Positions 2,654 through 47,633 of a stretch of DNA of 64,000 nt are shown one piece after another. This stretch comes from Candidatus Lustribacter sp. (GTDB lineage Bacteria; Vulcanimicrobiota; Vulcanimicrobiia; Vulcanimicrobiales; Vulcanimicrobiaceae): NCBI GenBank assembly GCA_965277805.1, contig OZ255842.1, forward strand, positions 4,160,001 to 4,224,000, written 5' to 3'. A model generated the notes under the pieces. The model was given only the letters and a program-made list of their open reading frames with translations, made no database searches and was not told the origin of the DNA. Positions within the stretch are counted from its first letter, which is position 1. Each line of letters begins with the position of its first letter. The translations under genes were made by a program, and so were the position numbers.

Positions 2654-5943
<3,290 letters not shown>

Positions 5944-5947
<4 letters not shown>

Positions 5948-8900: not shown

Positions 8901-9219
8901 CGGTGACGAGATCGGCGTCGCGAGCGGTGTGGTTGATGACCAAATCCATCATCACGCCCACGCGTGCCTGAGCCGCCCGGTCGACGAAGCGCTTGACGAG
9001 CGCCCGATCCGAGGCGCGCGATTTGCCGCGAAAGAGCGGATTCAAGCGCTCGTAGCTCTTCACCGCGTAGAGGCTGCCCGAATAGCCCGTTTCGTGAAAC
9101 GGGTTGACGTAGATCCAGTTGAACTCCATCGCGGCGATGCGCGGCACATGCTCGATCCAGCGGTCGATGGAGCCGGCGAGCGTGGGAAACAGATTGTAAA
9201 TTCGGGGACCTTGCTTCAT
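5944..9219 (-). CDS. glgE: Maltose-1-phosphate maltosyltransferase GlgE with an extra N-terminal GH13 alpha-amylase domain (1091 aa)
   Basis: C-terminal half: [44 protein letters not shown]-terminal half: FRCDAAY, AENLG, ESHDTPR. Confidence 0.93.
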
Positions 9220-9231
9220 CGGTGTCGCTTG

Positions 9232-13193: not shown

Positions 13194-15322
13194 GCCTCGG
13201 CCGTTATCAGCGCGAAAACGGCGACCGACCGCGCTGCGATCGTGTACGCATGATCGCTTTCCACGCGCACCTCTTGAGATTCGAGGGGTGCGTTCGTATC
13301 GGCGAGCCGCAGCCATGTGTCTCCGCCGGTCGTCACCGGCAGAATGAACGGCACGTCTTCGTGATAGGAGTTGAAGAGCAGCAACAGCGTGGCGTCTTGA
13401 CCGAGCCGGTGAATCCCGGTCGGCTGCGCGCGACCGTCGATCCGCATGCCGAACGTACGCGCGCCGTTCCACGCGTCGGGCGCGATCTCGGTGCCCGCCG
13501 GGTTGATCCACGTCACGTCCTTGACGTTCAGCGCTTCGTCATACGCGCCGGTCAAGAAGCGCGTGCGATGCAGGATGGGATATTGATCGCGGAGCCGGGT
13601 CAAGAGGGTCACGAAGGCCACGAGATCCTCGTGGACGTCGCGCAAGCTCCAGTCGACCCACGTGACCTCGTTGTCCTGGCAGTACGCGTTGTTATTGCCG
13701 TTCTGCGTGCGCCGGAATTCATCGCCGGCCAGCATCATCGGCGTCCCCTGGGATAACAGGAGCGTCGCCAGCATGTTGCGCACTTGGCGCGCGCGCAACG
13801 CCTCGATGTCCGGGTCGTCGGTCGGCCCCTCGACACCGCAATTCCACGAGCGGTTGTCGGAACTTCCGTCGCGATTGTCTTCCCCGTTTGCTTCGTTGTG
13901 TTTTTCGTTGTACGTGACGAGATCGTTCATGGTGAATCCGTCGTGCGCCGTGACGAAATTGACGCTCGACCACGGCCGGCGCCCATGATGATTGAAGATC
14001 TCTCCCGATGCGGTAATCGGCGACGTGATCGCCGTGGCCGGCGCTTCACCGCGCCAGTAGTCGCGCACGTTGTCGCGGAACCCGTCGTTCCACTCAGCCC
14101 ATCCCGGTGGAAAGCCGCCGACCTGATACCCGCCGGGTCCGATGTCCCACGGCTCCGCGATCAGCTTTACGTCGTTGAGCACCGGATCCTGAGCGCACGC
14201 GCGCAAGAACCCGCTGTCCGTATCGAATCCCCCCGGTTCACGCGCGAGAATCGTGCCGAGGTCGAAGCGAAAGCCGTCGACGCGCATCTCATTGACCCAA
14301 TAGCGCAGGCTATCGGTCACCATCTGAATCACGCGCCGGTTGGAGAGGTTGACGGTGTTTCCGGTGCCCGTGTCGTTGATGTAATAGCGCTTGTCTTCTT
14401 GCAAGCGGTAGTACGAGGCGTTGTCGATGCCTTTGAACGACAGCGTCGCCCCGCGTTCGTTGCCCTCGGCCGTGTGGTTGTAGACGACGTCGAGAATAAC
14501 TTCCAGTCCCGCCGCATGGAAGCGGGCGACCATTTCCTTGAATTCCTGCAGCACGCGAAACCGGTCGGCAGCGTAACGCGGATCCGGCGCGAAAAAACCG
14601 ATGCTGTTGTAGCCCCAATAATTCGTCAGGCCTTTTTCCAGCAGCTGACTGTCGTTCACGAAGGTGTGAACCGGGAGCAGTTCTACCGCAGTGACGCCGA
14701 GAGACTTGATGTAGGCGATAACTTCGGGGCTGCCGAGGCCTTCGTAGGTGCCGCGCAACGATTCCGCGACCCCGGGATGCCGTTTGGTATATCCGCGGAC
14801 GTGCATTTCGTAAATGATCGTGCGATCCCACGCCACGCGCGGCCGATCGCGTTGCCCGTGCCAATCGAAGCCCGGATCGACGACGACGCATTTGGGAACG
14901 TACGGCGCGCTGTCACGGGTATCGAAGCTCAGGTCCTCATCGGGATCGCCGACGGTATAGCCGAAGCAGGCGTCATTCCATTGCAATTCGCCGATGTGCG
15001 CCCGTGCGTACGGATCGAGCAGCAGCTTGTTTTTGTTGAACCGGTGTCCCGCGCTGGGATCGTAGGGACCATCGACGCGATAGCCATAAATCGTTCCGGG
15101 CCCGATGCCGGGGACGAAGCCGTGCCAAATTTCATTCGTGTATTCGGGCAACCGGATGCGTTCGCGCTCGATCTGACCGGAATCATCGAAGAGGCAAATT
15201 TCGACGCCGGTCGCGTTCGCCGAGAACAGCGCGAAATTTACGCCCTCGCCGGTCCATGTCGCGCCGATTGGATGAGGCAAACCCTCGCTTATTGCTAAAG
15301 GCGCGCTCGCAATGGTAGTCAC
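13190..15322 (-). CDS. glgX: Glycogen debranching enzyme
   Basis: NYWGYNSIGFF, DVVYNHTAEG, DGFRFDL, AEPWD, AHDGFT, GNNNAYCQDN; GTG start 15322. Confidence 0.96.
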   Translation of the reverse strand: MTTIASAPLAISEGLPHPIGATWTGEGVNFALFSANATGVEICLFDDSGQIERERIRLPEYTNEIWHGFVPGIGPGTIYGYRVDGPYDPSAGHRFNKNKLLLDPYARAHIGELQWNDACFGYTVGDPDEDLSFDTRDSAPYVPKCVVVDPGFDWHGQRDRPRVAWDRTIIYEMHVRGYTKRHPGVAESLRGTYEGLGSPEVIAYIKSLGVTAVELLPVHTFVNDSQLLEKGLTNYWGYNSIGFFAPDPRYAADRFRVLQEFKEMVARFHAAGLEVILDVVYNHTAEGNERGATLSFKGIDNASYYRLQEDKRYYINDTGTGNTVNLSNRRVIQMVTDSLRYWVNEMRVDGFRFDLGTILAREPGGFDTDSGFLRACAQDPVLNDVKLIAEPWDIGPGGYQVGGFPPGWAEWNDGFRDNVRDYWRGEAPATAITSPITASGEIFNHHGRRPWSSVNFVTAHDGFTMNDLVTYNEKHNEANGEDNRDGSSDNRSWNCGVEGPTDDPDIEALRARQVRNMLATLLLSQGTPMMLAGDEFRRTQNGNNNAYCQDNEVTWVDWSLRDVHEDLVAFVTLLTRLRDQYPILHRTRFLTGAYDEALNVKDVTWINPAGTEIAPDAWNGARTFGMRIDGRAQPTGIHRLGQDATLLLLFNSYHEDVPFILPVTTGGDTWLRLADTNAPLESQEVRVESDHAYTIAARSVAVFALITAEA

Positions 15323-15331
15323 CCCACGTTC

Positions 15332-15357
15332 TTTCCGACGATGTGAGCGACCCAAAC
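15332..15357 (-). promoter_or_regulatory. Putative SigB/SigF-type promoter of the glgX operon
   Basis: GTTT-N16-CGGAAA-N9-GTG on the minus strand. Confidence 0.55.
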
Positions 15358-19328: not shown

Positions 19329-19742
19329 ATGTCTGCAGAACTCTCGAACGACAACCGCAATACGAATAATTTCGCGTCCAACGGCGCAGCGGTAGCGTAT
19401 AGCCCGTTACGTGAAATGCTCGGCTACGATCCGTTTCGCCGATTTTTTTCAAATGTCGACCCGCAAATCGACGTCATCCGGACGGACGCCGGCTTCGAGG
19501 TGGAAATCCCGGTCCCCGGGTTCAAGAACGAGCAGATCGAGCTCGTCGTCAAAGAAAACGTGCTCACCTTAACTGCAAAGAGCGACCGGCGCGCGTTCAC
19601 GCGCTCGCTCAAATTGCCCGATGACGTCGACGCCCAGAATATCGAAGCGAGCGTTGACAACGGACTGCTCACGCTCGTGCTCAAGCGGCACCCCGACGCG
19701 CAGCCGCGGCGCATCGAGATTAAGGCCCGCGGCCAATCGTAA
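19329..19742 (+). CDS. Small heat-shock protein Hsp20/alpha-crystallin
   Basis: AAGGAG upstream of ATG; EIPVPGF, FTRSLKLP, ASVDNGLLTL, RRIEI (IXI motif). Confidence 0.93.
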   Translation: MSAELSNDNRNTNNFASNGAAVAYSPLREMLGYDPFRRFFSNVDPQIDVIRTDAGFEVEIPVPGFKNEQIELVVKENVLTLTAKSDRRAFTRSLKLPDDVDAQNIEASVDNGLLTLVLKRHPDAQPRRIEIKARGQS

Positions 19743-20775
19743 ATCGCACGCGAGAAATTTTCGCGTCAGCCGCGCCGTAGTACACATCGATTGCATCCGG
19801 GGCGACCTCGTCGATACCGGTCGGAAAGACGACGTCGTTGACCGTTCCAAACCGTTCCGCTAGGGTTTCGGGGACGAGTACCGGCACGGGCGAGCGGTAC
19901 ACGATGCGATGCGGGATGTGGATGTCGTTGATGAGGATGCCGGCGCTGTACAGAAGCGAAGGGCCGGCCGGGCCGTCGACGGCATCCACGCCGTGAAACA
20001 CCGAGAGCCATCCGAGCCTCGTGCGAATCGGCGGGGTGCCGGCCCCGTTTTTGAGCCGGCCCCATTCCGTGCCGGGCTCCAACACGCGGACGCTTTCAGC
20101 CGGCCGGCACAACATCGTCAAGTCGCGTTTCACCGCCTCGACCGGGATGTAGGCGAGGCAGGCCGCTTCGCGCTCTTCCGGCGGCAGCGACAAGATGACC
20201 GGGATCGGCGTCTGTCCGTTGATCGTTTCAGGCCGCATCGGCCGGTGAAAGAATGCGAATGATGGAACGCCGGCAGGTGAACGTACCGGATCCGGAAAGA
20301 AGGCCGCGTCTTTGTTGTCGACGTCGTTGAGCGCGTCGCCCGGAAACCGCACTAGGCCGAGCCTCGTCCAGTCATACGCATCGGCCGAAATCGCGAGCGC
20401 GATGCGTGCGCCGCGTGGGCCGAATGCGGTATAGGCCATGACGTAATGGCCGATGTCGGGCACAAAGGTCACGCGCGCGTCTTCGCAACCGTGACCGGCG
20501 GGCACCGAACGTTGCTCGTACTCCGCTTCGGGTTCGAGCACGATTCCGAGGCGCTCGATTCTTCCGCCGCCATCCATCCGAGCCAACCCGATACGTGAGA
20601 CGTTGCCTTTGGCAACCATGCGCGGAAAAAGCAGCAGATTGCCCGAGCGGTCGCGCGCCGTTCCCGGATTGAGCACGCCCTCGAGTTCGAGCGGAGAGCC
20701 GTCCGGCGACATCACGACCCCGAGACGCTCACTCGACAGCGCTAACGTTCCCGCCAAGACTTCGGGAGAGAGCAC
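19720..20775 (-). CDS. GH130-like glycosidase/phosphorylase (five-bladed propeller)
   Basis: GVLNPG, CEDARV, NKDAAFFP, HRP, VVFPTG, YYGAAD. Confidence 0.85.
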   Translation of the reverse strand: MLSPEVLAGTLALSSERLGVVMSPDGSPLELEGVLNPGTARDRSGNLLLFPRMVAKGNVSRIGLARMDGGGRIERLGIVLEPEAEYEQRSVPAGHGCEDARVTFVPDIGHYVMAYTAFGPRGARIALAISADAYDWTRLGLVRFPGDALNDVDNKDAAFFPDPVRSPAGVPSFAFFHRPMRPETINGQTPIPVILSLPPEEREAACLAYIPVEAVKRDLTMLCRPAESVRVLEPGTEWGRLKNGAGTPPIRTRLGWLSVFHGVDAVDGPAGPSLLYSAGILINDIHIPHRIVYRSPVPVLVPETLAERFGTVNDVVFPTGIDEVAPDAIDVYYGAADAKISRVRFTIGRGP

Positions 20776-20778
20776 CTA

Positions 20779-23025
20779 TCAGTGCTCGCCGGCCGCGGCC
20801 ATGGGTCCGACAACCAGCGAGCCGTCCGAAGGCTCCGCGCAGTGGATCGCGACCGTCTGACCGCCACGCAGCGCAAACGTCGCATGACCGTCCGCCGACA
20901 GCTTGCCATGGACCGGAACCGACACGCTGCCGGCCTCCACGGTAACCGTTATGGAGCGCGCTATGCCGGCAACGTCCGCTGGTCCGACCCGAAGCTCGCA
21001 GCTTCCCCGGGGGTCGCCGCCGACGCGCCAGCTGCCGCCGTCACGTGCCGGCACAAAGTCGAACATGGGGTAATTGCAAAATGCAATCATGCCCGTGCCC
21101 TCGAGAGCCTGGTAGTGTCTCGACGTCATGACGAACGGCAAGCCGGCACCGTAGATCTCCTGACCGACCTGTCCCGACTGTTCGCGGCCGTCTTGTAGAT
21201 CTTCGAGCGGCACGTTCAGCCCGCGCACGATGCGCCCGTTGCGCGGCTTTTCTGCGATGACATCGACCGGCAGGCTGTCGGGATAGTAATACCAGCAACG
21301 GTCGAGAGCGTACTTCTGGTACTCCGAGAGCAAGTATCTCAGCGCCGGCCGCAGATCGTCACCGCCGAGCGAGAGGTACTCGTGAAACTTTGCATGCGCT
21401 TCCAGTTCCTCGTAGGGCGCGATGTAGGGCGCGTCGCGTAACGGGAACAGGCCGAAGAACGTGCGGTAGTGACGCGCGTGTTCGTATTCGCACTGCCATA
21501 GCCACATGTTATCGAAGAGGTTGGCGAGACACGATTCGCTGAGCTCGAGATAGCGCGACTTCTTGGTCAGCTTCCACAAACGCAGCGCGGCTTCGGCAGC
21601 GAACCCGGTCGTATTCAACTGGTAGGCCAGATTGAAGGCTAACCCGTGGAGGCGCGAGACCGCGACTTCGGCTTCCCGGAGATATTCGGCATCGCCGAAC
21701 ATCTCGTGCGCATGGATCATCACGAGCCCGTAAAGACCGGCCACATCGGTCTCGCCGCCTTCGCCGGGCCGCGCTTCAGCTCGGATGACATCGATCGTTT
21801 TCAGATTGAAAAAGACGGGCCATCGGTAATCGAATCGATGAGCGACACGTATCAGGTAGGGCAGGCTCTTCTTGAAGGCGTCTTTCGCGCCCGCATCGCC
21901 GTCGAGCGCGATTCGAAACAGGTTGAACAACGCATGGTGTAAGTACCAGCTGTCCATCGCTTCGTGGTTCATGTTGTCTTCGGGCTGCGCGCCTTCGAAC
22001 GGCTCGCCGGGGAGCCAGCGAACGATCGAACCGATCTCCTCGTCATAGAAGGCCGTCGCGTTTTCGCGCAGTGTCTTCGACAACGCACTTACTTCGTTGC
22101 GCCACCCGTCGTATTCGCCGGCATTTACCGCAAGGGTAAACTGCACCATGCTCTCCGGCGGCTTCGTTTCATCGCCGGCATAGGGCATGAGGTGACGGCG
22201 GCCCTGACGCACGTACGAACACAGCGGCGAGAACGACAGATCGCGTAACGCATCGCCGGCGCGCTGAGCCCAGTTGTGATATTGTGGTTCCGGCTTGTCG
22301 AGGAGCGCGTAGGTTGCGGCGAGCTGGTCGAGATAGAGCCCCGCGAGCGCTTCCGAGTGCGGCACGTCCGCAGTCAACGAAACGAAGGCATCGGAAACCA
22401 CGATGTCGCGGGCTTTCGGTAAAATGCAGCCGTCGCCGGAGGGCGGCGCATATCCCAATTCCGGGCCCGTACCGCCGACCGTGCCGGCCGGCGTACGCTT
22501 CGTTTCGGCCAGGTACTCGCTGAGTGCGCTAAAATTCTGATAGTAGAAAACGGAGAAGGGTGCGGGTTGGCGGGCGCTTGCGAACAGGATTCCGCTGCGC
22601 AGTCCACGCTGGCTCGTATGTATCGTAACATCGCTTGCGGCGGCGAACAGGTCGCGGGGCCATTCCGTGATCTGCATGTCTTGGGCCGGCATCAACGACG
22701 TCGTGCAGCGTACCGTGGCCGGCTCGTGCATTTCGATCTTCGCGCGGACGGGGCCGAGCGGCGTCGTAAATTCGCATCCGGCCGTTCCGTCTGCGTTCGA
22801 CGATGTCAGAACGTTGGAGATTTCGCTCGCGCCCGGACCGAGTCGAAGGTATGCGACTTCGGAACCCTTGAGGGACAGCGCTAACCAAACGTTGGAACGT
22901 CCCCGGGCCGCGCGGACGCTCACATTTCCGGCAGCGGCGATCGTACCCAAATCGACGGCCACTTCGAGGTCGCCCCGCAAACCGAGCGCCGACGCTGACA
23001 CTGGTGGCGAGGCGGTGGCGCTCAT
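20779..23025 (-). CDS. Hypothetical 748-aa protein; core suggests a six-hairpin (alpha/alpha)6 glycosidase-like fold
   Basis: Long ORF with normal composition ending 3 nt before the GH130 start; helical repeats such as GDAEYLREAEVAV and KSRYLELSESCL; fold is inference. Confidence 0.75.
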   Translation of the reverse strand: MSATASPPVSASALGLRGDLEVAVDLGTIAAAGNVSVRAARGRSNVWLALSLKGSEVAYLRLGPGASEISNVLTSSNADGTAGCEFTTPLGPVRAKIEMHEPATVRCTTSLMPAQDMQITEWPRDLFAAASDVTIHTSQRGLRSGILFASARQPAPFSVFYYQNFSALSEYLAETKRTPAGTVGGTGPELGYAPPSGDGCILPKARDIVVSDAFVSLTADVPHSEALAGLYLDQLAATYALLDKPEPQYHNWAQRAGDALRDLSFSPLCSYVRQGRRHLMPYAGDETKPPESMVQFTLAVNAGEYDGWRNEVSALSKTLRENATAFYDEEIGSIVRWLPGEPFEGAQPEDNMNHEAMDSWYLHHALFNLFRIALDGDAGAKDAFKKSLPYLIRVAHRFDYRWPVFFNLKTIDVIRAEARPGEGGETDVAGLYGLVMIHAHEMFGDAEYLREAEVAVSRLHGLAFNLAYQLNTTGFAAEAALRLWKLTKKSRYLELSESCLANLFDNMWLWQCEYEHARHYRTFFGLFPLRDAPYIAPYEELEAHAKFHEYLSLGGDDLRPALRYLLSEYQKYALDRCWYYYPDSLPVDVIAEKPRNGRIVRGLNVPLEDLQDGREQSGQVGQEIYGAGLPFVMTSRHYQALEGTGMIAFCNYPMFDFVPARDGGSWRVGGDPRGSCELRVGPADVAGIARSITVTVEAGSVSVPVHGKLSADGHATFALRGGQTVAIHCAEPSDGSLVVGPMAAAGEH

Positions 23026-25015: not shown

Positions 25016-26134
25016 TTAGAGTTGGGTCGACCAGTCGCGCTCTTGGAGTTCGCGTTTGATGCGCGCCATGAATTTGCCGGCCGTCGAGCCGTCGAACGCG
25101 CGGTGATCCCATGACATGCACAGATACATGCGGCGCCGGATCGCGATGCCGCCGTTGTACGGAACGACGCGCTCTTCAACGGCGTCGGTAGAGAGCGTCG
25201 CGACGTTCGGCGTGTTGATGATCGGTGCAGTCATCAACGTGCCGTACGATCCGTTGTTGGTAATCGTGAAGGTCGAGCCGGAATAGTCCGACGCAACCAG
25301 CTTCGATGCGCGCGCACCGGCCGCGCGTGAAATGATGGCGCGCGAAAGACCGGTCACAGTGAGGCCGTCGGCATCGCGAATCACCGGCACGACTAAGCCG
25401 GCTTCGTCGAGATCGACCGCAACGCCGAGGTGCACCGACTCGTTGTGCACGAGCCCCGATCCGTCGATGCGGGCGTTCACGGCGGGAAAGGCGCGCAGCG
25501 CGATGACCACTGCCCGCGCGATGAACGGCAAGTACGTGAGCCCGGCGGAGGAGCGCACCGCATTCACGCTCTCCATGTCCGCTTCGATCACGGAGAACAC
25601 GTCGGCCACCGCGCGCTTCGATGCGAGCACGTTCGCCGCGATCTGCGCGCGCAGCGATGAGAACGGCACGCCGCGTCCGGGTGTTGCGGGGGCAATCGCA
25701 GCGGCCGGTACAGCCACCGCTGGAGCAGTCGCGGGCGAAGGAGCGGATTCAACGAGCTTCAGCACATCGCTGCGCGTGATACGGCCGCCTTCGCCGGTAC
25801 CGCGCACAGAGTTCAGGTCGAGCTGATGCTCGCGCGCGAGCCGGCGCACGACCGGTGAACGCAAGTGTGCGCGTGAGCCGGTGTTACTTGCGGCGACGGC
25901 GCCGTCGCCGATGCGTGCGAGTTCGGTGCCGACCGGCACGGTGGTGCCGTCGGGTACGAGAATCTCGCGCAGCACCCCGGCGTAGAGCGACGGGATCTCG
26001 GTGTTGACTTTGTCGGTTGCCACTTCGAAGAGCGGCTCGTCGACGGCCACGTTATCGCCGACCGCCTTGAGCCAGCGCACGACGGTGCCTTCGGAGACGC
26101 TCTCGCCGAGCTGCGGCATCGCGACCGCGGTCAT
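25016..26134 (-). CDS. Dihydrolipoamide acyltransferase (E2) of a 2-oxoacid dehydrogenase complex
   Basis: Lipoyl motif EVATDKVNTE, E3-binding SPVVRRLARE...GTGEGGRITRSD, catalytic DHRAFDG. Confidence 0.93.
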   Translation of the reverse strand: MTAVAMPQLGESVSEGTVVRWLKAVGDNVAVDEPLFEVATDKVNTEIPSLYAGVLREILVPDGTTVPVGTELARIGDGAVAASNTGSRAHLRSPVVRRLAREHQLDLNSVRGTGEGGRITRSDVLKLVESAPSPATAPAVAVPAAAIAPATPGRGVPFSSLRAQIAANVLASKRAVADVFSVIEADMESVNAVRSSAGLTYLPFIARAVVIALRAFPAVNARIDGSGLVHNESVHLGVAVDLDEAGLVVPVIRDADGLTVTGLSRAIISRAAGARASKLVASDYSGSTFTITNNGSYGTLMTAPIINTPNVATLSTDAVEERVVPYNGGIAIRRRMYLCMSWDHRAFDGSTAGKFMARIKRELQERDWSTQL

Positions 26135-27024
26135 TTGGCCATCGGGATCTCGAGGTTCTCTCCGGCGGCGTTGGCCAGCACGTAGTAGAGAATCGAGAAG
26201 TCGTGGTGCGAGAGGCCTTGGCCGCGCGCGGCGGTGAGCCACGCGTTGGTCGTCGACGTCGTCGGCAGCGGCACGCCGAGTTTTTCGGCCAGCTGCAGCG
26301 CGAGGTCGAGATCCTTCTGCATCATCGTGCAGTCGAACCAGGCTTTTTGCGGCTGTTCTTTGATCAGCGGGCCGCGATACTGCAGCATCGGCGACGCGGT
26401 CGCACCGCTCAGCATGATGTCGAGGGCGACGTCGCGCGGAATGCCGCTCTTCACCGCCAGCAGCAAACCTTCGCTCAAGGCGAGGATCTGCGTTGAGAGC
26501 TGCAGGTTCAGCGCGATCTTCATCGTCTTCGCTTGGCCCACGTCGCCGACGTGAAACACTTTCGGACCGATCGCTTCGAGGACCGGACGAATGCGTTCGA
26601 GCGCGGCTTTGTCGCCGCCGACCATGATCAGCAATTTGCCCTGCTGAACCGAGACCTGACTGCCGAGTACGGGCGCGTCGAGCAGCTCGCCCCCGGCCGC
26701 CCGGGTCTTCTCCGCGAGCGCCTGCACGTGGGCGGTGCCGACGGTGCTCATCTCGACGAGCGTCTTGCCGTTGATGGCGCCGAGCACGCCGTCACTGCCC
26801 TCGCACACCGCAGTCAACGCTTGATCGTTCGTTACCATGGTGAGCAAGACGCCACACGCTTGCGCGACCGCGCGCGGCGAATCGGCCCACTTCATGCCCT
26901 TCGCGATCAGCGGTTCGGCCTTGCTCTTCGTGCGGTTCCAGCCGACGACGTCGATCTTCGCCAACAGCAGCCGGTCGACGAACCCGCTGCCCATCTCACC
27001 GAGACCAACCATTCCAACGGTCAT
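26131..27024 (-). CDS. NAD(P)-dependent beta-hydroxyacid dehydrogenase (MmsB/GarR family)
   Basis: GMVGLGEMG, DAPVLG, MKIALN, MQKDL. Confidence 0.92.
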   Translation of the reverse strand: MTVGMVGLGEMGSGFVDRLLLAKIDVVGWNRTKSKAEPLIAKGMKWADSPRAVAQACGVLLTMVTNDQALTAVCEGSDGVLGAINGKTLVEMSTVGTAHVQALAEKTRAAGGELLDAPVLGSQVSVQQGKLLIMVGGDKAALERIRPVLEAIGPKVFHVGDVGQAKTMKIALNLQLSTQILALSEGLLLAVKSGIPRDVALDIMLSGATASPMLQYRGPLIKEQPQKAWFDCTMMQKDLDLALQLAEKLGVPLPTTSTTNAWLTAARGQGLSHHDFSILYYVLANAAGENLEIPMAK

Positions 27025-27031
27025 GCGTTTC

Positions 27032-28006
27032 CTATCCGAGCGTTTTACGTACGGTGTCGACGATGCGATCGACCGACGGACGCGCGCCGTCCTCGAGCGC
27101 TTCGGCCGCCGGCAGCGGCGCGTGGGGCGTGGTGATGCGCACGATCGGCGCGTCGAGATCCCAGAATGCTTCCTCGGCTACGATCGAGACGATTTCCGCG
27201 CCCCAGCCGCATAAGCGCGGGTTCTCTTCGACCGTATAAAGCCGGCCGGTCGCGATCGTCTCGCGCAGGATCGTCTGCGTATCGAGCGGCACGAGCGAAC
27301 GCACGTCGACGACGGTGGCGTTGATGCCCTCGCTCGCGAGCCGTTCGGCCGCGGCCATCGCGCGCGGCACCATCGCCGCGAGCGCGAGGATCGTGCAGTC
27401 CTTGCCCGAGCGCAGCACCTTCGCCGTGCCGAGCGTATCGACGAGTTCGCCGTCGGGCACCTCGCCCTTGACCGGATAGAGTTCTTTCGCTTCGAAGAAC
27501 ATCACCGGATCGGGATCGCGGATCGCGGCCGCAAGCAAGCCTTTCACATCGGCGGCTGACGACGGGGCGACGACCTTGAGTCCCGGCACCGCCATCGCCC
27601 AGTTTTCCACTGCCTGCGAATGCTGCGCGCCGAACCGCAAGCCGCCGCCGTTGGCGGTGCGTACGACCAGCGGCAGCGTGAACTGTCCGCCGCTCATGTA
27701 GCGCGCCTTCGCCATTTGGTTGGCCGGAATGTCCCAGCACACGGCGAGGAAGTCCGAAAACATGATCTCGGCGATCGGCCGCAAGCCCGTCATCGCCGCG
27801 CCCATGCACGTGCCGAGAATCGCCATCTCGGAGATCGGCGTGTCGCGCACGCGCGTGGGGCCGAAGCGCTCGAGCAAACCGACGGTCGCCTTGAACACGC
27901 CGCCCGCACCGCCGATGTCCTCACCGAGGAAGACGACGTTCTCGTCGCGTTCCATCTCTTGCGCGATCGCGGCCGCAACCGCGTCGCGATACGTTAGTTC
28001 CGCCAT
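27032..28006 (-). CDS. ThDP-dependent dehydrogenase E1 beta subunit (AcoB/PdhB-like)
   Basis: GEDIG, DTPISE, GAQHSQ, VDVRSLVPLD. Confidence 0.94.
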   Translation of the reverse strand: MAELTYRDAVAAAIAQEMERDENVVFLGEDIGGAGGVFKATVGLLERFGPTRVRDTPISEMAILGTCMGAAMTGLRPIAEIMFSDFLAVCWDIPANQMAKARYMSGGQFTLPLVVRTANGGGLRFGAQHSQAVENWAMAVPGLKVVAPSSAADVKGLLAAAIRDPDPVMFFEAKELYPVKGEVPDGELVDTLGTAKVLRSGKDCTILALAAMVPRAMAAAERLASEGINATVVDVRSLVPLDTQTILRETIATGRLYTVEENPRLCGWGAEIVSIVAEEAFWDLDAPIVRITTPHAPLPAAEALEDGARPSVDRIVDTVRKTLG

Positions 28007-28998
28007 GTCGACGTCCCGTCGGCCCAGGTGTCTTTCTCGATCTCATCGAGGCTCGGCAGCGGGCCGCTTTTCGCTTCTTCGGTGGCGCGATCGATTTCAG
28101 CCATCGCGGCCGCCTCGATATCCGCCAGCGTCTTCTCGGGAATGCCGTCGGCGAGCAAACGTGCGCGGTACATCGGCAGCGGATCGCGCTTGAGCCATTC
28201 CTGCACTTCGGCCTCGGGCCGGTACTGCGCGGGATCGGCGCGCGAGTGGCCGCCGTGACGGTACGTCAACGCCTCGATCAGCGAGGGACCGTCGCCGCGC
28301 CGGGCGCGCTCGTAGGCGCTCTCTGCGACGAGATAGCATGCGTCCGCGTCGTTGCCGTCGACCACGATCGGTTCGAGCCCGTACGCGCTCGCGCGATCGG
28401 CCGCCGGCCGTTTCACCGACGTCACCGAATCGATCGCGGTATACTCCATGTACATGTTGTTCTCGCACACGAACACGACCGGCAGCTTCCAGACCGCGGC
28501 GAGGTTGAGCGCTTCGTGAAAGGCACCGATGTTGGTCGTGCCGTCGCCGAAGAAGCACACCGACACTTGTTGCGATTTCTTGTATTGCGAGGTCCAGCCA
28601 GCACCGAGCGCGATGCACATCTGCGCGCCGATGATCGCGTACGATCCCATCGCGTACTTATCGGCCTCGCCCAGGTGCATCGAGCCGCCCTTGCCGGCGA
28701 GCACGCCGTTGGCGCGGCCCAGCAATTCCGCCATGCAGCCGGCCATGCTGACGCCGCGCGCGATCGTATGATCGTGGCCGCGATAGGTGCAGAACGTCCA
28801 GTCATCGCGCCGCATCGCCGTGGCAAAGCCGGCGGCGACCGCTTCCTGACCGAGCGCGAGATGGCTCGTGCCCTTGACGAGATTTTGCAGAAACAGATCG
28901 TATGCGCGCTTTTCGAACACGCGCAAGCGGTACTGCAGCTCATACATCGCAATGCGCGTCTCGCGCGCGATCGCCGGTTTCGCAAGCGTGTCGGTCAT
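27994..28998 (-). CDS. ThDP-dependent dehydrogenase E1 alpha subunit (AcoA/PdhA-like)
   Basis: GQEA, YRGH, GKGGSMH, GDG...ENN ThDP motif, GHSRADP; ATG 28998 overlaps the M24 stop. Confidence 0.94.
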   Translation of the reverse strand: MTDTLAKPAIARETRIAMYELQYRLRVFEKRAYDLFLQNLVKGTSHLALGQEAVAAGFATAMRRDDWTFCTYRGHDHTIARGVSMAGCMAELLGRANGVLAGKGGSMHLGEADKYAMGSYAIIGAQMCIALGAGWTSQYKKSQQVSVCFFGDGTTNIGAFHEALNLAAVWKLPVVFVCENNMYMEYTAIDSVTSVKRPAADRASAYGLEPIVVDGNDADACYLVAESAYERARRGDGPSLIEALTYRHGGHSRADPAQYRPEAEVQEWLKRDPLPMYRARLLADGIPEKTLADIEAAAMAEIDRATEEAKSGPLPSLDEIEKDTWADGTSTWRN

Positions 28999-30272
28999 CT
29001 GGGCTGGCCTCCGTAGTCGTAGGCGTTCGCGATGAAGAGGTCTTGGGCGGGGAAGCGGGTGATGATCTTCGGACCGGCCGAGGTGACCACGATCTCTTCC
29101 TCGATGCGCGCGGCGGAGAAGCCGTCCTTCGCCGGGCAGTAGGTTTCCAGCGCGAACACCATGCCTTCTTTGATCTCCATCGGGTGATCGATCGAATTCA
29201 GACGCGAGATGACCGGCCGCTCGTGCAGATGCAAGCCGAGGCCGTGTCCGAACTGCAAACCGAACGCCTCCATCTCGCTTGAAAAACCGAACTCTTCGGC
29301 CTTCGGCCACACGCGCGCGACGTCGTTGGTCATCACGCCGGGCCGGATCACGTCGATCGAGCGGTCGATCCACTCGCGGCACTGCTTGTAGGCGTCCTTC
29401 TGCGCCGGCGTCGCGAAGCCGACGCTGAACGTGCGGTAATAGCACGTGCGGTAGCCGTTGAACGCCGACATGATGTCGAAGAAGGCTTGATCGCCGGGCC
29501 GGATGATGCGATCGCTGAAGTTGTGCGGATGCGGATTGCAGCGCTCGCCGGACACCGCGTTGATCGATTCGACGTCGTCCGAACCAAGCTCGTATAAACG
29601 CTTGGTGGCGAGCGCCACGATCTCTTTTTCTTTCACGCCGGGCTTGAGCGCCTCGACGATATCCTGATACGTCCCGTCGACCATCGCGGCGGAGGTCGAG
29701 AGCAGCATGATCTCGTCGTACGACTTGATCTCGCGCGCGTCGAGCATCACTTGCTGCCCGTCGGCGACCGTGACGCCGAGTTTCTGCAGTTCGAACATCA
29801 ATGGCGGCTCGACATAGTCCAGGCCGAGCGGCATCTTCTCGACGCCGGCCTCAACCAGGAGCGAGAAGATTTGCTCGGCGGCTTGCGTGAAGAGCCCGGC
29901 TTCCGGCGCGATCGCACCACGCAGGCCCGTCAGCCCGGCGTAGATGTCCTTATCGTCGATCCAGGGACAAAATTGCCGGTGGTGCTTGGCGGCCGAACCG
30001 AAATCCCAGACCATCGGTCCAGACGTGCGGGTGATCAGGGCGTAGCGGGTCATCTTGTCGCGCGACCACTCGCCGATTGCGGTCGAGGTCACGTAGCGGA
30101 TGTTATTGACGTCGAAGAGCAGCAGCGCCCCGAGCGGTGAGCCGTCGAGCGCGGCGCGCGCCCGGGCCAGCCGGTATCGGCGGAGGCGGTCGAAATTGAC
30201 GCGCTCCTCGGTATCGACGGCCATCTGGCCGGGCGACGGGATGGGACGGCTGGGGTCCAGGCCCTCAATCAT
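28995..30272 (-). CDS. M24 (Xaa-Pro peptidase/creatinase fold) protein with atypical metal site
   Basis: Creatinase-N NNIRY; GHGLGLHLHE, ALET, RIEE; YRTCYYRT where M24 peptidases have Y-x-S-D-x-T-R-T. Confidence 0.88.
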   Translation of the reverse strand: MIEGLDPSRPIPSPGQMAVDTEERVNFDRLRRYRLARARAALDGSPLGALLLFDVNNIRYVTSTAIGEWSRDKMTRYALITRTSGPMVWDFGSAAKHHRQFCPWIDDKDIYAGLTGLRGAIAPEAGLFTQAAEQIFSLLVEAGVEKMPLGLDYVEPPLMFELQKLGVTVADGQQVMLDAREIKSYDEIMLLSTSAAMVDGTYQDIVEALKPGVKEKEIVALATKRLYELGSDDVESINAVSGERCNPHPHNFSDRIIRPGDQAFFDIMSAFNGYRTCYYRTFSVGFATPAQKDAYKQCREWIDRSIDVIRPGVMTNDVARVWPKAEEFGFSSEMEAFGLQFGHGLGLHLHERPVISRLNSIDHPMEIKEGMVFALETYCPAKDGFSAARIEEEIVVTSAGPKIITRFPAQDLFIANAYDYGGQPR

Positions 30273-30288
30273 GCGTCGGGAGCTTCTT

Positions 30289-30306
30289 TCTGCAATCGAT
30301 TACAGA
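30289..30306. promoter_or_regulatory. LacI-family operator O2, overlapping the lacI stop codon, upstream of the M24 gene
   Basis: TCTGCAATCGATTACAGA near-palindrome with central CG. Confidence 0.8.
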
Positions 30307-31319
30307 TCGGCTGAAGTATTGGACGGCGGTGCGCTCGACCCCCGCACGACGAGGTGGCCGCTGAAGCGCAGGGTGGTCGGCGGACGTTCGGCTTCGGCCG
30401 GCTCGGCGAGCCGTTCCGTCACCAGTTCGACCGCCAGCAGCGCCATCTCGCGCAACGGCAACGCGTAGCACGTGAGCGGCGGATTTTGCGCCGCGTACCA
30501 ATCGGGATCTTCGAACGCGGCCAGCGACACGTCGGCGGGCACCGCAGCGCCGAGATCTTTGAGCGCGCGCAACACGCCGACCGTGAGCGGTCCGGCGCTC
30601 GAGAAAATTGCCGTCGGTTTATTTTCGTGCGCGAGCAGGTCGCGCGTCGCGCGATAACCGTGATCGGGCGTGTACGGTCCGCGCTCGACGCGCGCGGAGA
30701 GGCCGGCGCCGCGCATCGCTTCACGGTAACCGGCGATACGATAGCGTGTCGTCGAGAGCGATTCCGGACCGGCAATCATCGCGATTCGCCGGTGTTTTAG
30801 CCCAATAAGGTGCGAAGCCAGCGCCGCCGCGCCCTCGCGATCGTCGCTCACGATCGCGTCGTACAAACCTTCTTCGGTATGTCGCAGCAGCTCGACGATC
30901 GGAATGCGTTTGGGCGCCGAGGGCAAGCCGCGCGCGCCCGTCGGCGTCGACGGGACGTAGACGATCGCATCGACGCGAAACTCGGTCAGCGTGTTCAAAT
31001 ACGAGCGATCGCTCTCGGCCTCGTTGTTCGTGATACACAACAGCAGGCGATAACCGCGCGCTTCGAACGCGCCCTGCAGCACGCTCGCCGTCTCGGCGTA
31101 GAAGTCGTTGCGGATGTCCGGCACGATCAGGCCGACCGTCATGGTCTGTTTCGAACGCAGTGCTCGTGCGAGGGCATTGGGCCGATACCCGAGCCGCCGC
31201 GCCTCGGCCACGACACGCGCTCGCGTCGCATCGTCCACGTAACGCGCCCCGCTCAAGGCGCGCGAGATCGTTGCCGGCGAGAGGCCGGTGCTGACCGCCA
31301 CGTCGCGCAGGGTCGCCAT
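30300..31319 (-). CDS. LacI family transcriptional regulator
   Basis: MATLRDVAVSTGLSPATISRAL, LGYRPNALARAL, VPADVSLAAF. Confidence 0.95.
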   Translation of the reverse strand: MATLRDVAVSTGLSPATISRALSGARYVDDATRARVVAEARRLGYRPNALARALRSKQTMTVGLIVPDIRNDFYAETASVLQGAFEARGYRLLLCITNNEAESDRSYLNTLTEFRVDAIVYVPSTPTGARGLPSAPKRIPIVELLRHTEEGLYDAIVSDDREGAAALASHLIGLKHRRIAMIAGPESLSTTRYRIAGYREAMRGAGLSARVERGPYTPDHGYRATRDLLAHENKPTAIFSSAGPLTVGVLRALKDLGAAVPADVSLAAFEDPDWYAAQNPPLTCYALPLREMALLAVELVTERLAEPAEAERPPTTLRFSGHLVVRGSSAPPSNTSADL

Positions 31320-31330
31320 GCCGCATAGGT

Positions 31331-31348
31331 TCTGAAATCGATTGCAGA
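31331..31348. promoter_or_regulatory. LacI-family operator O1 (autoregulatory)
   Basis: TCTGAAATCGATTGCAGA; reverse complement matches O2 at 17/18. Confidence 0.8.
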
Positions 31349-31494
31349 AGTCCCGTCGCACTTCGAAAACATCACGGCGCGGCACGGTTCTCGCGACCTG
31401 TTGTTCGCAATCACGGGCTCGACCGACACGCGCGGCCAAGTTCATGAGCCGGATAGCGAGCAACTGTATCAATACGGGCCGCATTTAGAAGTCA

Positions 31495-32373
31495 GTGAAG
31501 AATCGCGGCGCTCTGGTCGCCATCGGCGCCCTGGCGCTTGCGTGGGGCTACAACTGGGTCGTCATCAAGATCGCCACGGGCGGCGCTTCCCCGTTCGCGC
31601 TCGTTGCGTTGCGCATGGTGCTTGGGGCGGCCGCGCTGTTCGTCGTATCCGCACTGGCCCGCAAGTCGCTGAAGTCGCCGCCACCGGGCCCGACCGCGCT
31701 GATCGGCTTTTTCCAGGTTACGCTGATGACGACGCTCCAGACGCTCGCGCTCTCCACCGGCGGCGCCGGCAAGACCACGCTGCTCGTCTATACGTTTCCG
31801 TTTTGGATCGCGCTCCTCTCGACTCGCTGGCTCGATGAGAAGCTGACGCGCACGGGCTGGATCGCGGTCGGAGTCGCCGCGGTGGGCCTCGGCTTCGTGC
31901 TCTACCCGCTCGACCTCGGCCACGACCTACTGAGCAAAGGCTTTGCCCTCGCTTCCGCGTTGTCGTGGGCCATCGGCGCCGTAATCACCAAACGCTTCCG
32001 CGCGAAGACGAAGGTCGAGCTCCTGCCGTTCACCGCGTGGCAGCTTGCGTACGGCGCGATCCCGATCGTGCTTATCGCGCTGCTCGTACCGGGCAGCTAC
32101 GTGCACTTCACGCTGCAGTTTTCGCTCGCGCTCGCCTACATCGTGGTCCTCGGAACCGCGCTCGCGTTCTGGCTCTGGTTCTACATCATCGAGCGCCTGT
32201 CGGCCACCGACACCGGCATCGCCTCACTGCTCACCCCGGTCGTCAGCGTGCTCCTCGCCTGGCTCCAACTGCACGAGAACCCCGGCATCCCCGAGTTGAT
32301 CGGCATGACGCTGATCGTCGCCGCGCTGTTGATCAACACCACCGGTGTCACCCCGCCTTCGCGACGAGGCTAG
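31495..32373 (+). CDS. EamA/DMT family transporter
   Basis: WGYNWVVIK, two EamA repeats, about 10 hydrophobic helices. Confidence 0.9.
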   Translation: MKNRGALVAIGALALAWGYNWVVIKIATGGASPFALVALRMVLGAAALFVVSALARKSLKSPPPGPTALIGFFQVTLMTTLQTLALSTGGAGKTTLLVYTFPFWIALLSTRWLDEKLTRTGWIAVGVAAVGLGFVLYPLDLGHDLLSKGFALASALSWAIGAVITKRFRAKTKVELLPFTAWQLAYGAIPIVLIALLVPGSYVHFTLQFSLALAYIVVLGTALAFWLWFYIIERLSATDTGIASLLTPVVSVLLAWLQLHENPGIPELIGMTLIVAALLINTTGVTPPSRRG

Positions 32374-33320
32374 AACGTTTGCCCTTCGCGGACCAGTTCG
32401 TGTACGCTGAGGCCTTCAATAGCGGCGAGGCCCATCGAGATGCGGGCTTCGTCGGTGGCGGCGCCGATGTGCGGTGACGAGAGCATGTTCGGCAGGTTGA
32501 TGAGCTTGTCGTTTATCGCCGGCTCGATTGCGAACACATCGAAGCATGCGGCGGCGAGTTTGTTCGTCGAGAGGCGCTCGAAGAGCACGTCCTCGTCGAC
32601 GATGCCGCCGCGGCACGTGTTGACCAGCACGCAGTCGGGACGCAGCCGCGCGAGCACTTTTTCGTCGTACAGACCGATCGTTGCGGCGGTTTTGGGGACG
32701 TGCAGCGTGAGCACTTCCGAGCGCTCGAGCAGCTCGTCGAACGATACCGGCTTCACGCCGTGTTCGCGGTAGAACTCGGGGTAGTCGGCGATGTCGTGTA
32801 CGAGGATCTCGCAGTTGAACGGCTTGAGGAGCCGCACGACTTCCTTGCCGACGTTGCCGCAGCCGTGGATCCCGACAGTGCGGCCGGTGAGGCCCTTGCC
32901 CAAACGCATCTGCGGACGCTCGCCGTTACGCATCGCGATGTTGAGCGGCATCACCCAGCGCAGTCCCGCAATGATATACGAAATCGTGAGTTCCGCGACT
33001 GCGAGTTTATTCGTGCCCGGCGTGTAGCCGAACAGGATCCCGTGCTTGCGCAGCGCGTCGAAGTCGAGCGTGTCGCAGCCGATGCCCATCTTGCCGATCA
33101 CCTTGAGATTGGGCAATGCCGAGAGCACGCGCTCGGTGACCGGCTCCATGCCGACGATCGCGCCGTCGCGATCGCGCAAGAGCTCGATGACTTCGTCTTC
33201 GGTCGGCTTCGATACGCTATCGCGGAATGTCGAGTCCGGATACTGCGCGAGCAGCTCGGCTCGCAGGAACGCATGCCGGGCGAAGAGGCCGTTGGTGACG
33301 CCGATCTTGGTAACGCGCAT
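32370..33320 (-). CDS. D-isomer-specific 2-hydroxyacid/phosphoglycerate dehydrogenase-like protein
   Basis: AGGAG SD; GIHGCGNVG, VNTCRG, DVFAIEP, SPHIGA. Confidence 0.92.
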   Translation of the reverse strand: MRVTKIGVTNGLFARHAFLRAELLAQYPDSTFRDSVSKPTEDEVIELLRDRDGAIVGMEPVTERVLSALPNLKVIGKMGIGCDTLDFDALRKHGILFGYTPGTNKLAVAELTISYIIAGLRWVMPLNIAMRNGERPQMRLGKGLTGRTVGIHGCGNVGKEVVRLLKPFNCEILVHDIADYPEFYREHGVKPVSFDELLERSEVLTLHVPKTAATIGLYDEKVLARLRPDCVLVNTCRGGIVDEDVLFERLSTNKLAAACFDVFAIEPAINDKLINLPNMLSSPHIGAATDEARISMGLAAIEGLSVHELVREGQTF

Positions 33321-33352
33321 GCCGTCTCCTAGCTCCGCCCGCAACGATCGTC

Positions 33353-33775: not shown

Positions 33776-37652
<3,877 letters not shown>

Positions 37653-43809: not shown

Positions 43810-44745
43810 ATGAGACGTGGGCGCGCTGCGGCGCTGTTGCTCGGCGGCGCTGCGCTAGGGGCGTTCCCGCTGCCCGGTGGAACGCAGGAGGCCGCCCCGC
43901 TGCGGATCGGGACGTTCGCGGTCGAGAACGGCCTGCAGCCGTTCTATGCGCGCGATAACGGATTTTTCACCGGCGCCGGCATCAACGCCGACGTGCAGCT
44001 CTTACCGGGCAGTGCCGCGATCGCGGCCGGGATCGTCTCGAACTCGATCGACGTCGGCTACGGTGCGATCGACGTGCTGGCCACGCTGCATTCGAAATCG
44101 ATTCCGGTCGCCGTGATCGCCCCGGGCGGCGAGTATCTTGCGCCGGTCACCTCGCGCGTCGCCGCGATCATGGTGCCGGCGAATTCCACCGTCAGAACGG
44201 CCAAGGATCTGAACGGCAAGGTCGTCGCTGCCAACTCGCTGCACAGCCTTGCCGATGCCGTGCCGAAGTTGTGGGTCGACCAGAACGGCGGCGATTCGTC
44301 CTCGCTCAAGTTCGTCGAAATGCCGTTCGCCGCGATGCCGGCTGCCTTCGACGCCGGCCGCGTCGACGCGGCGCTGATTTCGGAACCGTTCATGGGCGCC
44401 GCTGCGAAAAGCGGGCGCGTGCTCGTGTACGGCTACGACTGCATCGCCAAGCACTTCTTACTCGGCGCCTGGTTCGCGACACCGCAATGGGCGAAAGATC
44501 ACCCCGATGTGATCGCCCGTTTCCGGACCGGCATGCGCCAAGCCGCGACGTGGTCCAACGCGAACCCCGTCAAGACCGGCGAGCTGCTCGCGAAATATAC
44601 GAAGATCGATCCCGCCTACATCGCTACGATGACGCGCGCACGATTCGGCGAGCAACTGACGCCGGCACTGATGCAGCCGCTGATCGACGTCGCCGCGAAG
44701 TTCGGCCCGTTCCCCGCCTTCCCGGCACGGGAACTGATCTTCTAG
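43810..44745 (+). CDS. SsuA/TauA/NMT1-like ABC substrate-binding protein
   Basis: Signal peptide; GFFTGAGI, DLNGKVVA, GRVDAA, SEPF. Confidence 0.88.
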   Translation: MRRGRAAALLLGGAALGAFPLPGGTQEAAPLRIGTFAVENGLQPFYARDNGFFTGAGINADVQLLPGSAAIAAGIVSNSIDVGYGAIDVLATLHSKSIPVAVIAPGGEYLAPVTSRVAAIMVPANSTVRTAKDLNGKVVAANSLHSLADAVPKLWVDQNGGDSSSLKFVEMPFAAMPAAFDAGRVDAALISEPFMGAAAKSGRVLVYGYDCIAKHFLLGAWFATPQWAKDHPDVIARFRTGMRQAATWSNANPVKTGELLAKYTKIDPAYIATMTRARFGEQLTPALMQPLIDVAAKFGPFPAFPARELIF

Positions 44746-44746
44746 G

Positions 44747-47485: not shown

Positions 47486-47633
47486 GGCCCGGGCTACCGA
47501 AACCTACCATTTGGTTCCGGCCGCCGATAGGCGTTACCGTACGCAGCAAAGCGAGCACTAAGAAGAGGGGGCGCTTAGCTGAACCGCCGCCCGAGCGCAG
47601 GTAGGAGCGCCCACGGACAGTATACGGGCACCC

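Follow-up and report, generated by a model that had tools for sequence, protein, structure and literature searches.

Gene order and its conservation

The window analysed here is a stretch of 64,000 nt from Candidatus Lustribacter sp. (OZ255842.1, positions 4,160,001-4,224,000), whose 5.53-Mb genome is a single contig and whose nearest relatives are Eremiobacterota (Vulcanimicrobiota), namely Candidatus Lustribacter-like metagenome-assembled genomes. Our subject is an operon of six genes on its minus strand, located by open reading frames (ORFs) together with Pfam and NCBIfam scans. The first gene, lacI (30300-31319), encodes a LacI-family repressor of 339 aa from an ATG at 31319, with the Pfam LacI HTH and Peripla_BP_3/1 domains. 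It is followed by the gene for an M24 (pita-bread fold) enzyme of the 'C-Y-Y-R' clade (28995-30272; 425 aa; PF00557), and then by the genes for a thiamine diphosphate (ThDP)-dependent E1 alpha subunit (27994-28998; PF00676, 241 bits), an E1 beta subunit (27032-28006; Transket_pyr and Transketolase_C), a HIBADH/GarR-like dehydrogenase that is probably a semialdehyde reductase (26131-27024; PF03446 and PF14833), and an E2 dihydrolipoyl acyltransferase with lipoyl, E3-binding and catalytic domains (25016-26134; PF00364, PF02817 and PF00198). When the junctions are read from the sequence, the start and stop codons overlap as ATGA both between M24 and E1 alpha and between the HIBADH-like gene and E2, E1 alpha overlaps E1 beta by 13 nt, and 27 nt separate lacI from M24. 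Translational coupling links the five enzyme genes. The closely coupled set lacI-M24-E1a-E1b-MmsB/GarR-like-E2 described in the original prediction is thus entirely in place. As had also been claimed, the operon contains no E3; a lipoamide dehydrogenase is found at 5.28 Mb instead.

We then looked at the conservation of this arrangement in 66 loci collected by a pattern-based scan, with one genome per species. The M24-E1 core of the fetched loci shares 55-95% identity with that of the window, with one outlier at 42%. Linkage was counted in the 62 of these 66 loci that extend at least 1500 nt 3' of M24. The gene directly after M24 encodes E1 alpha in 38 of the 62 (at 55% identity or more in 36) and a HIBADH-like enzyme in 17, so that one or the other follows in 55. 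Anywhere in the locus, E1 alpha is found in 42, a HIBADH-like gene in 47, a long E2 in 16 and LacI in 21, and three loci (L067, L071 and L072) have neither E1 alpha nor a HIBADH-like gene. The linkage is seen in Eremiobacterota, Actinomycetota, Alphaproteobacteria, Burkholderiales, Verrucomicrobiota, Binatota and Chloroflexota. The gene arrangement is therefore more than chance, and the conserved linkage on which the original prediction depended is found in several phyla. Three metagenomic ORFs (P0164, P0173 and P0186) that looked like M24-E1 and M24-dehydrogenase fusions were rejected as such; they carry partial domains and are probably read-through products, which nevertheless confirm the adjacency.

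Among the carriers are Eremiobacterota from peat, Streptomyces, Acidimicrobiia and marine Phaeobacter, in which the core is on plasmids. To describe the recurrent neighbours, all ORFs of the loci were clustered and representatives were scanned. Short-chain dehydrogenases/reductases (SDRs), nearest to acetoin reductase, occur in 17 loci, and ABC importers of the Liv, Opp and CUT2 types recur. An SsuA-like binding protein is encoded next to M24 in 10 loci, and Ldh_2 genes are present in 6 loci, all from Eremiobacterota. Full plasmid versions exist in Phaeobacter, Tritonibacter, Marinovum and others, for example on plasmid pGal_E78 of Phaeobacter gallaeciensis DSM 26640. They have two arms, one with ThuA, the HIBADH-like gene, a CUT2 importer and an SDR, and the other with an SBP-like protein, an SDR, M24, E1 alpha, E1 beta, a lipoyl protein, an aldehyde dehydrogenase (ALDH), an E2 core and LpdA, the last four being consecutive on the Phaeobacter plasmids. 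The Streptomyces version comes with two amidohydrolases. Because the importers and the extra enzymes vary in this way, the M24-E1 core may represent a lower pathway that is common to different upper routes. A conserved ORF of 578 aa, considered as a possible new gene, turned out to be an antisense shadow of the ALDH gene.

Lone E1 pairs with only a lipoyl domain also have a possible counterpart in archaea. In 2007, van Ooyen and Soppa are reported to have described Haloferax volcanii operons of unknown function made of E1 alpha, E1 beta and a free lipoyl domain. This layout is that of our relatives L036, L037, L047 and L049, whereas the window encodes a full E2.

A 42-kb plasmid of Paenarthrobacter ureafaciens (L076, NZ_CP101190.1) encodes an M24 paralog of 55% identity, next to a fused E1 alpha/beta gene, an amidase, RidA, VOC and cupin proteins, a flavin reductase and a Liv-type importer. 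Here the M24 clade seems to be placed in another catabolic setting.

The immediate flanks of the operon are far less constant. An EamA/DMT transporter gene (31495-32373, plus strand; PF00892) diverges from lacI, and a D-isomer-specific 2-hydroxyacid dehydrogenase gene (32370-33344, minus strand; PF02826 and PF00389) lies beyond it, adjoins the ATP synthase operon and falls just outside the region of the original prediction, which ended at position 32373. Both neighbours had been listed there and both are present, but they accompany the operon only in the closest relatives: EamA in the window and in L009, L010, L011, L012 and L014 (the gene-order table shows no EamA at L011), and the 2-hydroxyacid dehydrogenase in only four related loci (L009, L010, L012 and L014). 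Whether the latter belongs to the pathway is uncertain. On the other side, E2 is followed by a 176-aa ORF without a family and then by an Nramp gene.

The LacI repressor and its putative operators

The regulator has the two parts of a LacI-family protein, HTH_LacI and a periplasmic-binding-protein-like effector domain, and its best NCBIfam matches (RbsR, PurR and others) all fall far under their cut-offs. Two palindromes with a central CG lie near the presumed promoters. O1, a 20-bp palindrome (TTCTGAAATCGATTGCAGAA; 31330-31349), is located in the divergent lacI/eamA intergenic region, 11 nt 5' of the lacI start. O2 (30288-30307), a second copy that differs from O1 by 2-3 mismatches, covers the lacI stop codon and ends 16 nt 5' of the M24 start. 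When the window was shuffled 100 times, the 20-mer was never matched. For the 14-bp core TGNAATCGATTNCA, 0.06 occurrences would be expected in the 5.5-Mb genome; there are three, two of them in this operon. According to these features, the operon is predicted to be under LacI repression through two putative operators, one before lacI and one before M24. The third copy of the core and two sites with one mismatch were considered as marks of further regulon members; all three are intragenic and lack the extended palindrome arms, and they were taken as chance occurrences. For the same reason, the operon probably constitutes the whole regulon in this genome.

The core sequence is also found just 5' of M24 in many other loci, in Eremiobacterota, in Acidimicrobiia (where it comes in pairs) and in one verrucomicrobial locus, and a variant core, TGCAAACGTTTGCA, precedes M24 in one alphaproteobacterial locus. 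In one Acidimicrobiales genome an additional tandem site stands ahead of an Opp-type (SBP_bac_5) transporter operon. A search for operators in two Acidimicrobiia genomes returned this kind of Opp-type operon and a cluster with an M24 paralog of 55% identity, neither of which points to a substrate.

That second cluster, from Acidimicrobiia (L084, G002:C1:2410001-2428000), carries five operator-like sites and no E1. It encodes a LacI, two zinc alcohol dehydrogenases, a CUT2 importer, a VOC protein, the 55%-identical M24 paralog, a class III aminotransferase, an SDR and an alpha/beta hydrolase. In this paralog a Trp takes the place of C379, a residue described below.

The M24 enzyme and its dehydrogenase partners

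We then asked what kind of M24 enzyme the operon encodes. The pita-bread catalytic fold is clearly present, since the PF00557 match scores 129.6 bits against a cut-off of 23. The top NCBIfam model is DddP (NF043017), aligned over the full length at 101.1 bits against a cut-off of 600, and the peptidase equivalogs are also far under their cut-offs (PepQ 75.5 against 630, PepP 31.1 against 465, MetAP 56.9 against 171). An AlphaFold2 model built from 39 sequences (pLDDT 83.1, pTM 0.84) was compared with the PDB by Foldseek. Ranks 1-4 are the DddP structures 4s01, 4s00, 4rzy and 4b28 (TM 0.79-0.81, about 20% identity, E around 1e-26), followed by prolidases (TMt around 0.8), the ectoine hydrolase DoeA and creatinase.

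The metal site departs from the D, D, H, E, E set of five ligands at one position. Cys277, in the motif GYRTCYYRT, aligns with the second metal-binding Asp of the Pyrococcus prolidase 1pv9, 11 residues past the first Asp, and the four remaining ligand positions (D266, H343, E376 and E392) are intact. This cysteine is present in 180 of 181 family sequences, a set made of 61 sequences from the loci and the window and of 120 further relatives. A whole-library search extended the picture: a C-Y/V/L-Y-R motif stands at the Cys position in 23 of 24 full-length representatives of 33-54% identity, none of the 24 reaches any named NCBIfam family, and the clade comprises 570 representative clusters at E ≤ 1e-30. 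The replacement of the second Asp by Cys, which the original prediction had pointed out in this protein, is therefore real, and it is the hallmark of a large uncharacterised M24 clade.

Two further cysteines distinguish the orthogroup of the window, C245 (GERCNPHPH), which is invariant, and C379 (ETYCPA), which is nearly so. Both are near the site, one of them in a loop that is poorly placed in the model (residues 244-249 form the only internal stretch with a pLDDT below 50), and they may hold a cofactor or cluster new to this fold. A three-cysteine Fe-S cluster was considered and is weakened by the loss of C245 and C379 in the sister clades.

The protein resembles its two best-described relatives in different ways. 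With the prolidase PepQ (1pv9) it shares the pita-bread domain, the creatinase-type N-domain, four of five metal ligands and both substrate-contacting histidines, and it differs by Cys277, by its low score and by its setting in a dehydrogenase operon. With DddP it shares the full-length fold, including the N-terminal domain, and both are M24 proteins with non-peptidase small-molecule chemistry, DddP by description and ours by prediction. No linkage of DddP to E1 genes is known to us. H250 and H350 fall on the two histidines conserved in prolidase, where DddP has other residues. His350 falls on position 377 of DddP, and the region of Asp307 contains Cys277 and is two residues shorter. We take Asp377 to be catalytic and Asp307 to be a ligand in DddP, the entry 4s01 being titled 'mutant D377N'. 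Since the peptidase-type histidines are kept, hydrolase chemistry seems somewhat likelier than lyase chemistry of the DddP type. The public annotations that we saw name the M24 protein 'Xaa-Pro peptidase' or something very similar, which is at odds with its altered metal site and with its gene context. The earlier description of the enzyme as atypical is borne out by the near-invariant Asp-to-Cys exchange, the PepQ score and the DddP-like fold. An ordinary Xaa-Pro peptidase lying by chance beside a spare pyruvate dehydrogenase (PDH), with no joint pathway, is largely refuted and deserves very little credence, since the annotation and an E1 beta score above a PDH subfamily cut-off (see below) are opposed by this exchange, by scores far under the peptidase cut-offs, by a cross-phylum linkage with a common regulator and operator, and by 13 other M24 matches in the same genome.

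The E1/E2 complex has a mixed kinship with PDH. E1 beta passes the cut-off of the PDH E1 beta subfamily (NF006667, 352 against 321), and E1 alpha is nearest to human PDH E1 alpha among solved relatives (179 bits, against 161 and 119 for the branched-chain E1 of Thermus and Pseudomonas). E2 has the lipoyl, E3-binding and catalytic domains of a PDH complex with an alpha2-beta2 E1, including the lipoyl lysine and the DHRAFDG catalytic motif, and a standard Lpd would be borrowed. However, E1 alpha and E2 are under all PDH equivalog cut-offs (322.9 against 393.85 on TIGR03182 for E1 alpha; 281.5 against 722 for E2 on the best-scoring PDH model), an E3 gene is absent from the operon, LacI control is predicted, and the E1 alpha forms a separate clade. 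The source genome contains an E1 alpha/E1 beta/E2 set at 5.49 Mb, an E1 pair at 1.80 Mb and a fused oxoglutarate-type enzyme at 4.08 Mb, as well as a true Lpd (above the TIGR01350 cut-off) beside a SucB-like E2 at 5.28 Mb. With these three further E1 sets and a separate E2-Lpd pair, the complex of the window is most simply an extra one, able to borrow its E3, in line with the original view that it is not a housekeeping PDH.

A quick tree of 40 E1 alpha sequences was made by maximum likelihood, and only its topology was used. In it, the M24-linked proteins form one clade of 32 rows (SH-aLRT 93). Long branches part it from two paralogs of the same genome, from L039 and L073, and from a second Eremiobacterota E1 type, which sits 5' of M24 in some members of that group. 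Within the clade, a verrucomicrobial sequence is nested inside Acidimicrobiia, and sequences from Binatia and Chloroflexota stand beside Eremiobacterota. This cross-phylum nesting suggests horizontal spread.

The 1.80-Mb pair (G000:C1:1803450-1806067; L079:4450-7067) has no adjoining E2 and lies within a sugar-nucleotide cluster with HldE-like and GalE-like genes and two PseC/WecE-like aminotransferase genes. Its product may attach a two-carbon branch to a sugar, in which case it would not be catabolic.

The fifth gene belongs to the HIBADH family, with NAD_binding_2 and NAD_binding_11 domains at 139 and 78 bits. None of the equivalog cut-offs is reached: tartronate semialdehyde reductase scores 188 against 341, HIBADH 139 against 292, threonate dehydrogenase 144 against 350 and sulfolactaldehyde reductase 127 against 348. 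Its best solved relatives are 3pef, 3pdu and 3doj, which we take to be NADPH-dependent succinic-semialdehyde/glyoxylate reductases of Geobacter and Arabidopsis; YihU (6sm7) is also matched (181-160 bits for the four). The protein shares with these reductases an NRT-type dinucleotide-fold motif, GxGxMG...NRTxxK, and the lysine in GQAKTMKIALN presumably occupies the catalytic position of the family. NR(T/S) follows the glycine-rich loop in 47 of 50 cluster-linked HIBADH-like sequences, the other three having an acidic residue, and we assume that this motif denotes NADP preference. The earlier assignment to beta-hydroxyacid dehydrogenases was thus right as to the family, but the enzyme looks like an NADPH-type semialdehyde reductase and not like an oxidising MmsB. 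At the close relative L009 (positions 13251-14139), the HIBADH-like gene appears as two tblastn pieces in different frames, which suggests a frameshift or an assembly error.

In other lineages an ALDH similar to succinic-semialdehyde dehydrogenase (SSADH) is encoded in the cluster (20 loci; 555-578 bits on TIGR01780 against a cut-off of 646). E2 is shown in 16 gene orders, those of the window and of 15 of the 66 fetched loci; in 15 of these 16, an ALDH and/or a HIBADH-like gene separates E1 beta from E2. Because the NADP-type reductase occupies the slot held elsewhere by an SSADH-like ALDH, the gene content suggests that a semialdehyde-level compound is an intermediate, either reduced or oxidised, which would fit an acyloin-type cleavage by E1 that releases an aldehyde.

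Proposed pathway and its alternatives

Altogether, the operon is best read as part of an uncharacterised catabolic pathway that combines a ThDP/lipoyl catabolic complex with a non-peptidase M24 enzyme. The undescribed pathway foreseen in the original prediction is supported by the comparison with peptidases and by the linkage, and we found no description of the cluster in the full-text literature, subscription journals and closed supplements lying outside the scope of the search. Likewise, a look-up of terms in PMC11485210, a paper on SAR11 transporters, brought up no statement about the cluster.

As to the reactions, we lean slightly towards a LacI-repressed catabolic operon for a small, probably anionic compound, in which the M24 enzyme, the ThDP-dependent E1 and E2 act in this order. 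At the metal site of M24 the thiolate of Cys277 would replace the second Asp, H250 and H350 being retained, and the enzyme would cleave a C-N bond of the amide or amidine type, or another carbon-heteroatom bond, of an imported compound. The product would bear a 2-oxo or alpha-hydroxyketone group and would be cleaved by the dedicated E1 alpha/beta. The acyl half would pass to the lipoyl arm of E2 and then to CoA, with the lipoyl arm re-oxidised by an Lpd encoded elsewhere. The semialdehyde-level fragment would be reduced by the NADPH-type HIBADH-like enzyme or, in other lineages, oxidised by the SSADH-like ALDH encoded in the same slot. EamA may export the reduced product or import the substrate.

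Several observations weigh against this scheme. The best fold match of the M24 protein, DddP, is a lyase and not a hydrolase. A plain 2-oxoacid dehydrogenase, releasing CO2 and no aldehyde, would suit a full E2 with an E3-binding domain just as well, and the aldehyde step is deduced from gene position and from the assumed meaning of a cofactor motif; it is possible that the complex is a 2-oxoacid dehydrogenase acting after steps from a hydroxyacid to a semialdehyde and a diacid. The neighbouring transporters are of varied type (Liv, Opp, CUT2, MFS and EamA), so that the core may be used by several upstream routes and not for a single substrate. Lastly, the 66 loci are a biased sample of close relatives, because they were found with peptide patterns of the window protein.

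A bolder reading joins these elements together, and we put it forward tentatively, thinking it rather unlikely in full. The 'C-Y-Y-R' clade would represent a new class of enzymes, with a thiolate ligand at the metal centre, that cleave a carbon-heteroatom bond of an abundant natural compound and hand an unstable oxo product directly to a dedicated ThDP/lipoyl complex; M24 and E1, together with LacI and its operator in some lineages, would then form a horizontally mobile, globally distributed and undescribed pathway. If so, the pathway might fill a long-standing orphan, the breakdown of pantothenate by pantothenase and of pantoate, or be a new C3-sulfonate route. The spread and conservation of the core argue for a common natural substrate whose turnover is absent from current metabolic maps. 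The new elements are the operator motif, which is conserved in other phyla, the wide extent of the Cys clade, the additional cysteines of the orthogroup, the reading of the dehydrogenase as an NADP-type reductase, and the existence of culturable, plasmid-borne versions. With culturable and harmless carriers and a defined operator motif, the question of the substrate becomes directly testable.

Among the specific alternatives, the one that survives best is nonetheless improbable. It makes M24 a DddP-like beta-elimination lyase acting on a 3-substituted 2-hydroxy acid and delivering a 2-oxo acid to E1/E2, the candidate reaction being the conversion of 3-sulfolactate to sulfite and pyruvate; the HIBADH-like and ALDH enzymes would interconvert dihydroxypropanesulfonate, sulfolactaldehyde and sulfolactate. 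DddP is indeed the top relative of M24 by both fold and NCBIfam, the HIBADH-like protein weakly matches the sulfolactaldehyde reductase model (126.9 bits) and 6sm7, and the ALDH is GabD-like. In addition, the Ldh_2 genes of the 6 Eremiobacterota loci score best on the L-sulfolactate dehydrogenase model (ComC-family; 223 bits against a cut-off of 500), the SsuA-like protein next to M24 recurs as described above, and a TauE gene lies in the Iodidimonas locus. SlcC, which is not HIBADH-like, is assigned to PF00389/PF02826 (PMC12421959), and these are the Pfam families of the 2-hydroxyacid dehydrogenase of the window. However, all of these matches are to broad families and far under the cut-offs, TauE was met in the only locus whose annotation reached so far, and none of the gene groups shared by 5 or more of the 66 loci is a TauE group. 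Moreover, the peptidase-like His350 holds the position of the catalytic Asp377 of DddP, no sulfite-handling gene is found within the window, and since these bacteria are already equipped with pyruvate-oxidising enzymes, a PDH reserved for plain pyruvate would be difficult to account for.

The second alternative, which we judge less probable again, places the operon in the classical, gene-orphan degradation of pantothenate and pantoate, whose steps map onto exactly these enzyme classes. M24 would be the pantothenase, the HIBADH-like enzyme the pantoate 4-dehydrogenase and the ALDH the aldopantoate dehydrogenase, after which a 2-hydroxyacid dehydrogenase would yield 2-oxoisovalerate and E1/E2 isobutyryl-CoA. 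A prolidase-like pocket would suit an amide that bears a free carboxylate, and the M24 family alignment has many invariant arginines. The pantothenase protein was still unidentified in 2023, according to PMC10393543. Against this, the window has no ALDH, no beta-alanine transaminase is found in any locus examined, E1 is nearer to PDH than to the branched-chain E1 proteins, and the NADP-type motif of the HIBADH-like enzyme favours reduction. The sugar-type transporters, diol-type SDRs and ThuA of the marine versions would also be left unexplained.

It is more doubtful still that the cluster is an acetoin/2,3-butanediol-type utilisation system in which M24 is an unrelated passenger. The likeness to the acetoin dehydrogenase system (AcoA/AcoB/AcoC/AcoL) is of several kinds: a heterotetramer-type E1 with a lipoyl carrier, an inducible cluster apart from the housekeeping complexes, an aldehyde-handling enzyme close by, as expected for acyloin cleavage, and butanediol-dehydrogenase-like SDRs in some relatives, those of the marine and Acidimicrobiia versions scoring best on acetoin reductase (256 bits against a cut-off of 304). 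However, M24 is the most constant member of the cluster, with its stop codon overlapping the E1 alpha start and its 3' neighbour conserved as counted above, so that it is a coupled component here. The catalytic domain of the E2 of the window is a classical 2-oxoacid_dh domain (PF00198), and the match to the AcoC-type model NF011457 (83.1 bits against 307) covers residues 37-163 only, the lipoyl part and linker. The window has no SDR, the regulator is of the LacI type, and the importers (ABC, MFS or EamA) are also different, the sugar-, peptide- and amino-acid-type ABC importers being ill-suited to a small neutral volatile. Since defining features that we tested are lacking in each case, we do not place the system among the acetoin, PDH, prolidase or DddP families.

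A few features elsewhere in the window deserve mention. A complete alpha-glucan set (GlgB, a TreS-maltokinase fusion, GlgE, MalQ and a GlgX-like protein) at 478-15355 corresponds to the GlgE route from trehalose to glycogen. An ORF of 748 aa without a Pfam or NCBIfam family (20779-23025, minus strand) lies directly 3' of a GH130-like gene (19720-20775) and beside an Nramp transporter gene. The ATP synthase beta subunit (33776-35281, minus strand) has a Ser/Thr/Ala-rich stretch at residues ~45-75, in its N-terminal domain, which by eye looks like an insertion relative to the usual protein. Finally, a GGDEF-EAL protein of 912 aa is flanked by two NMT1/SsuA-like binding-protein genes at 43810-48581.

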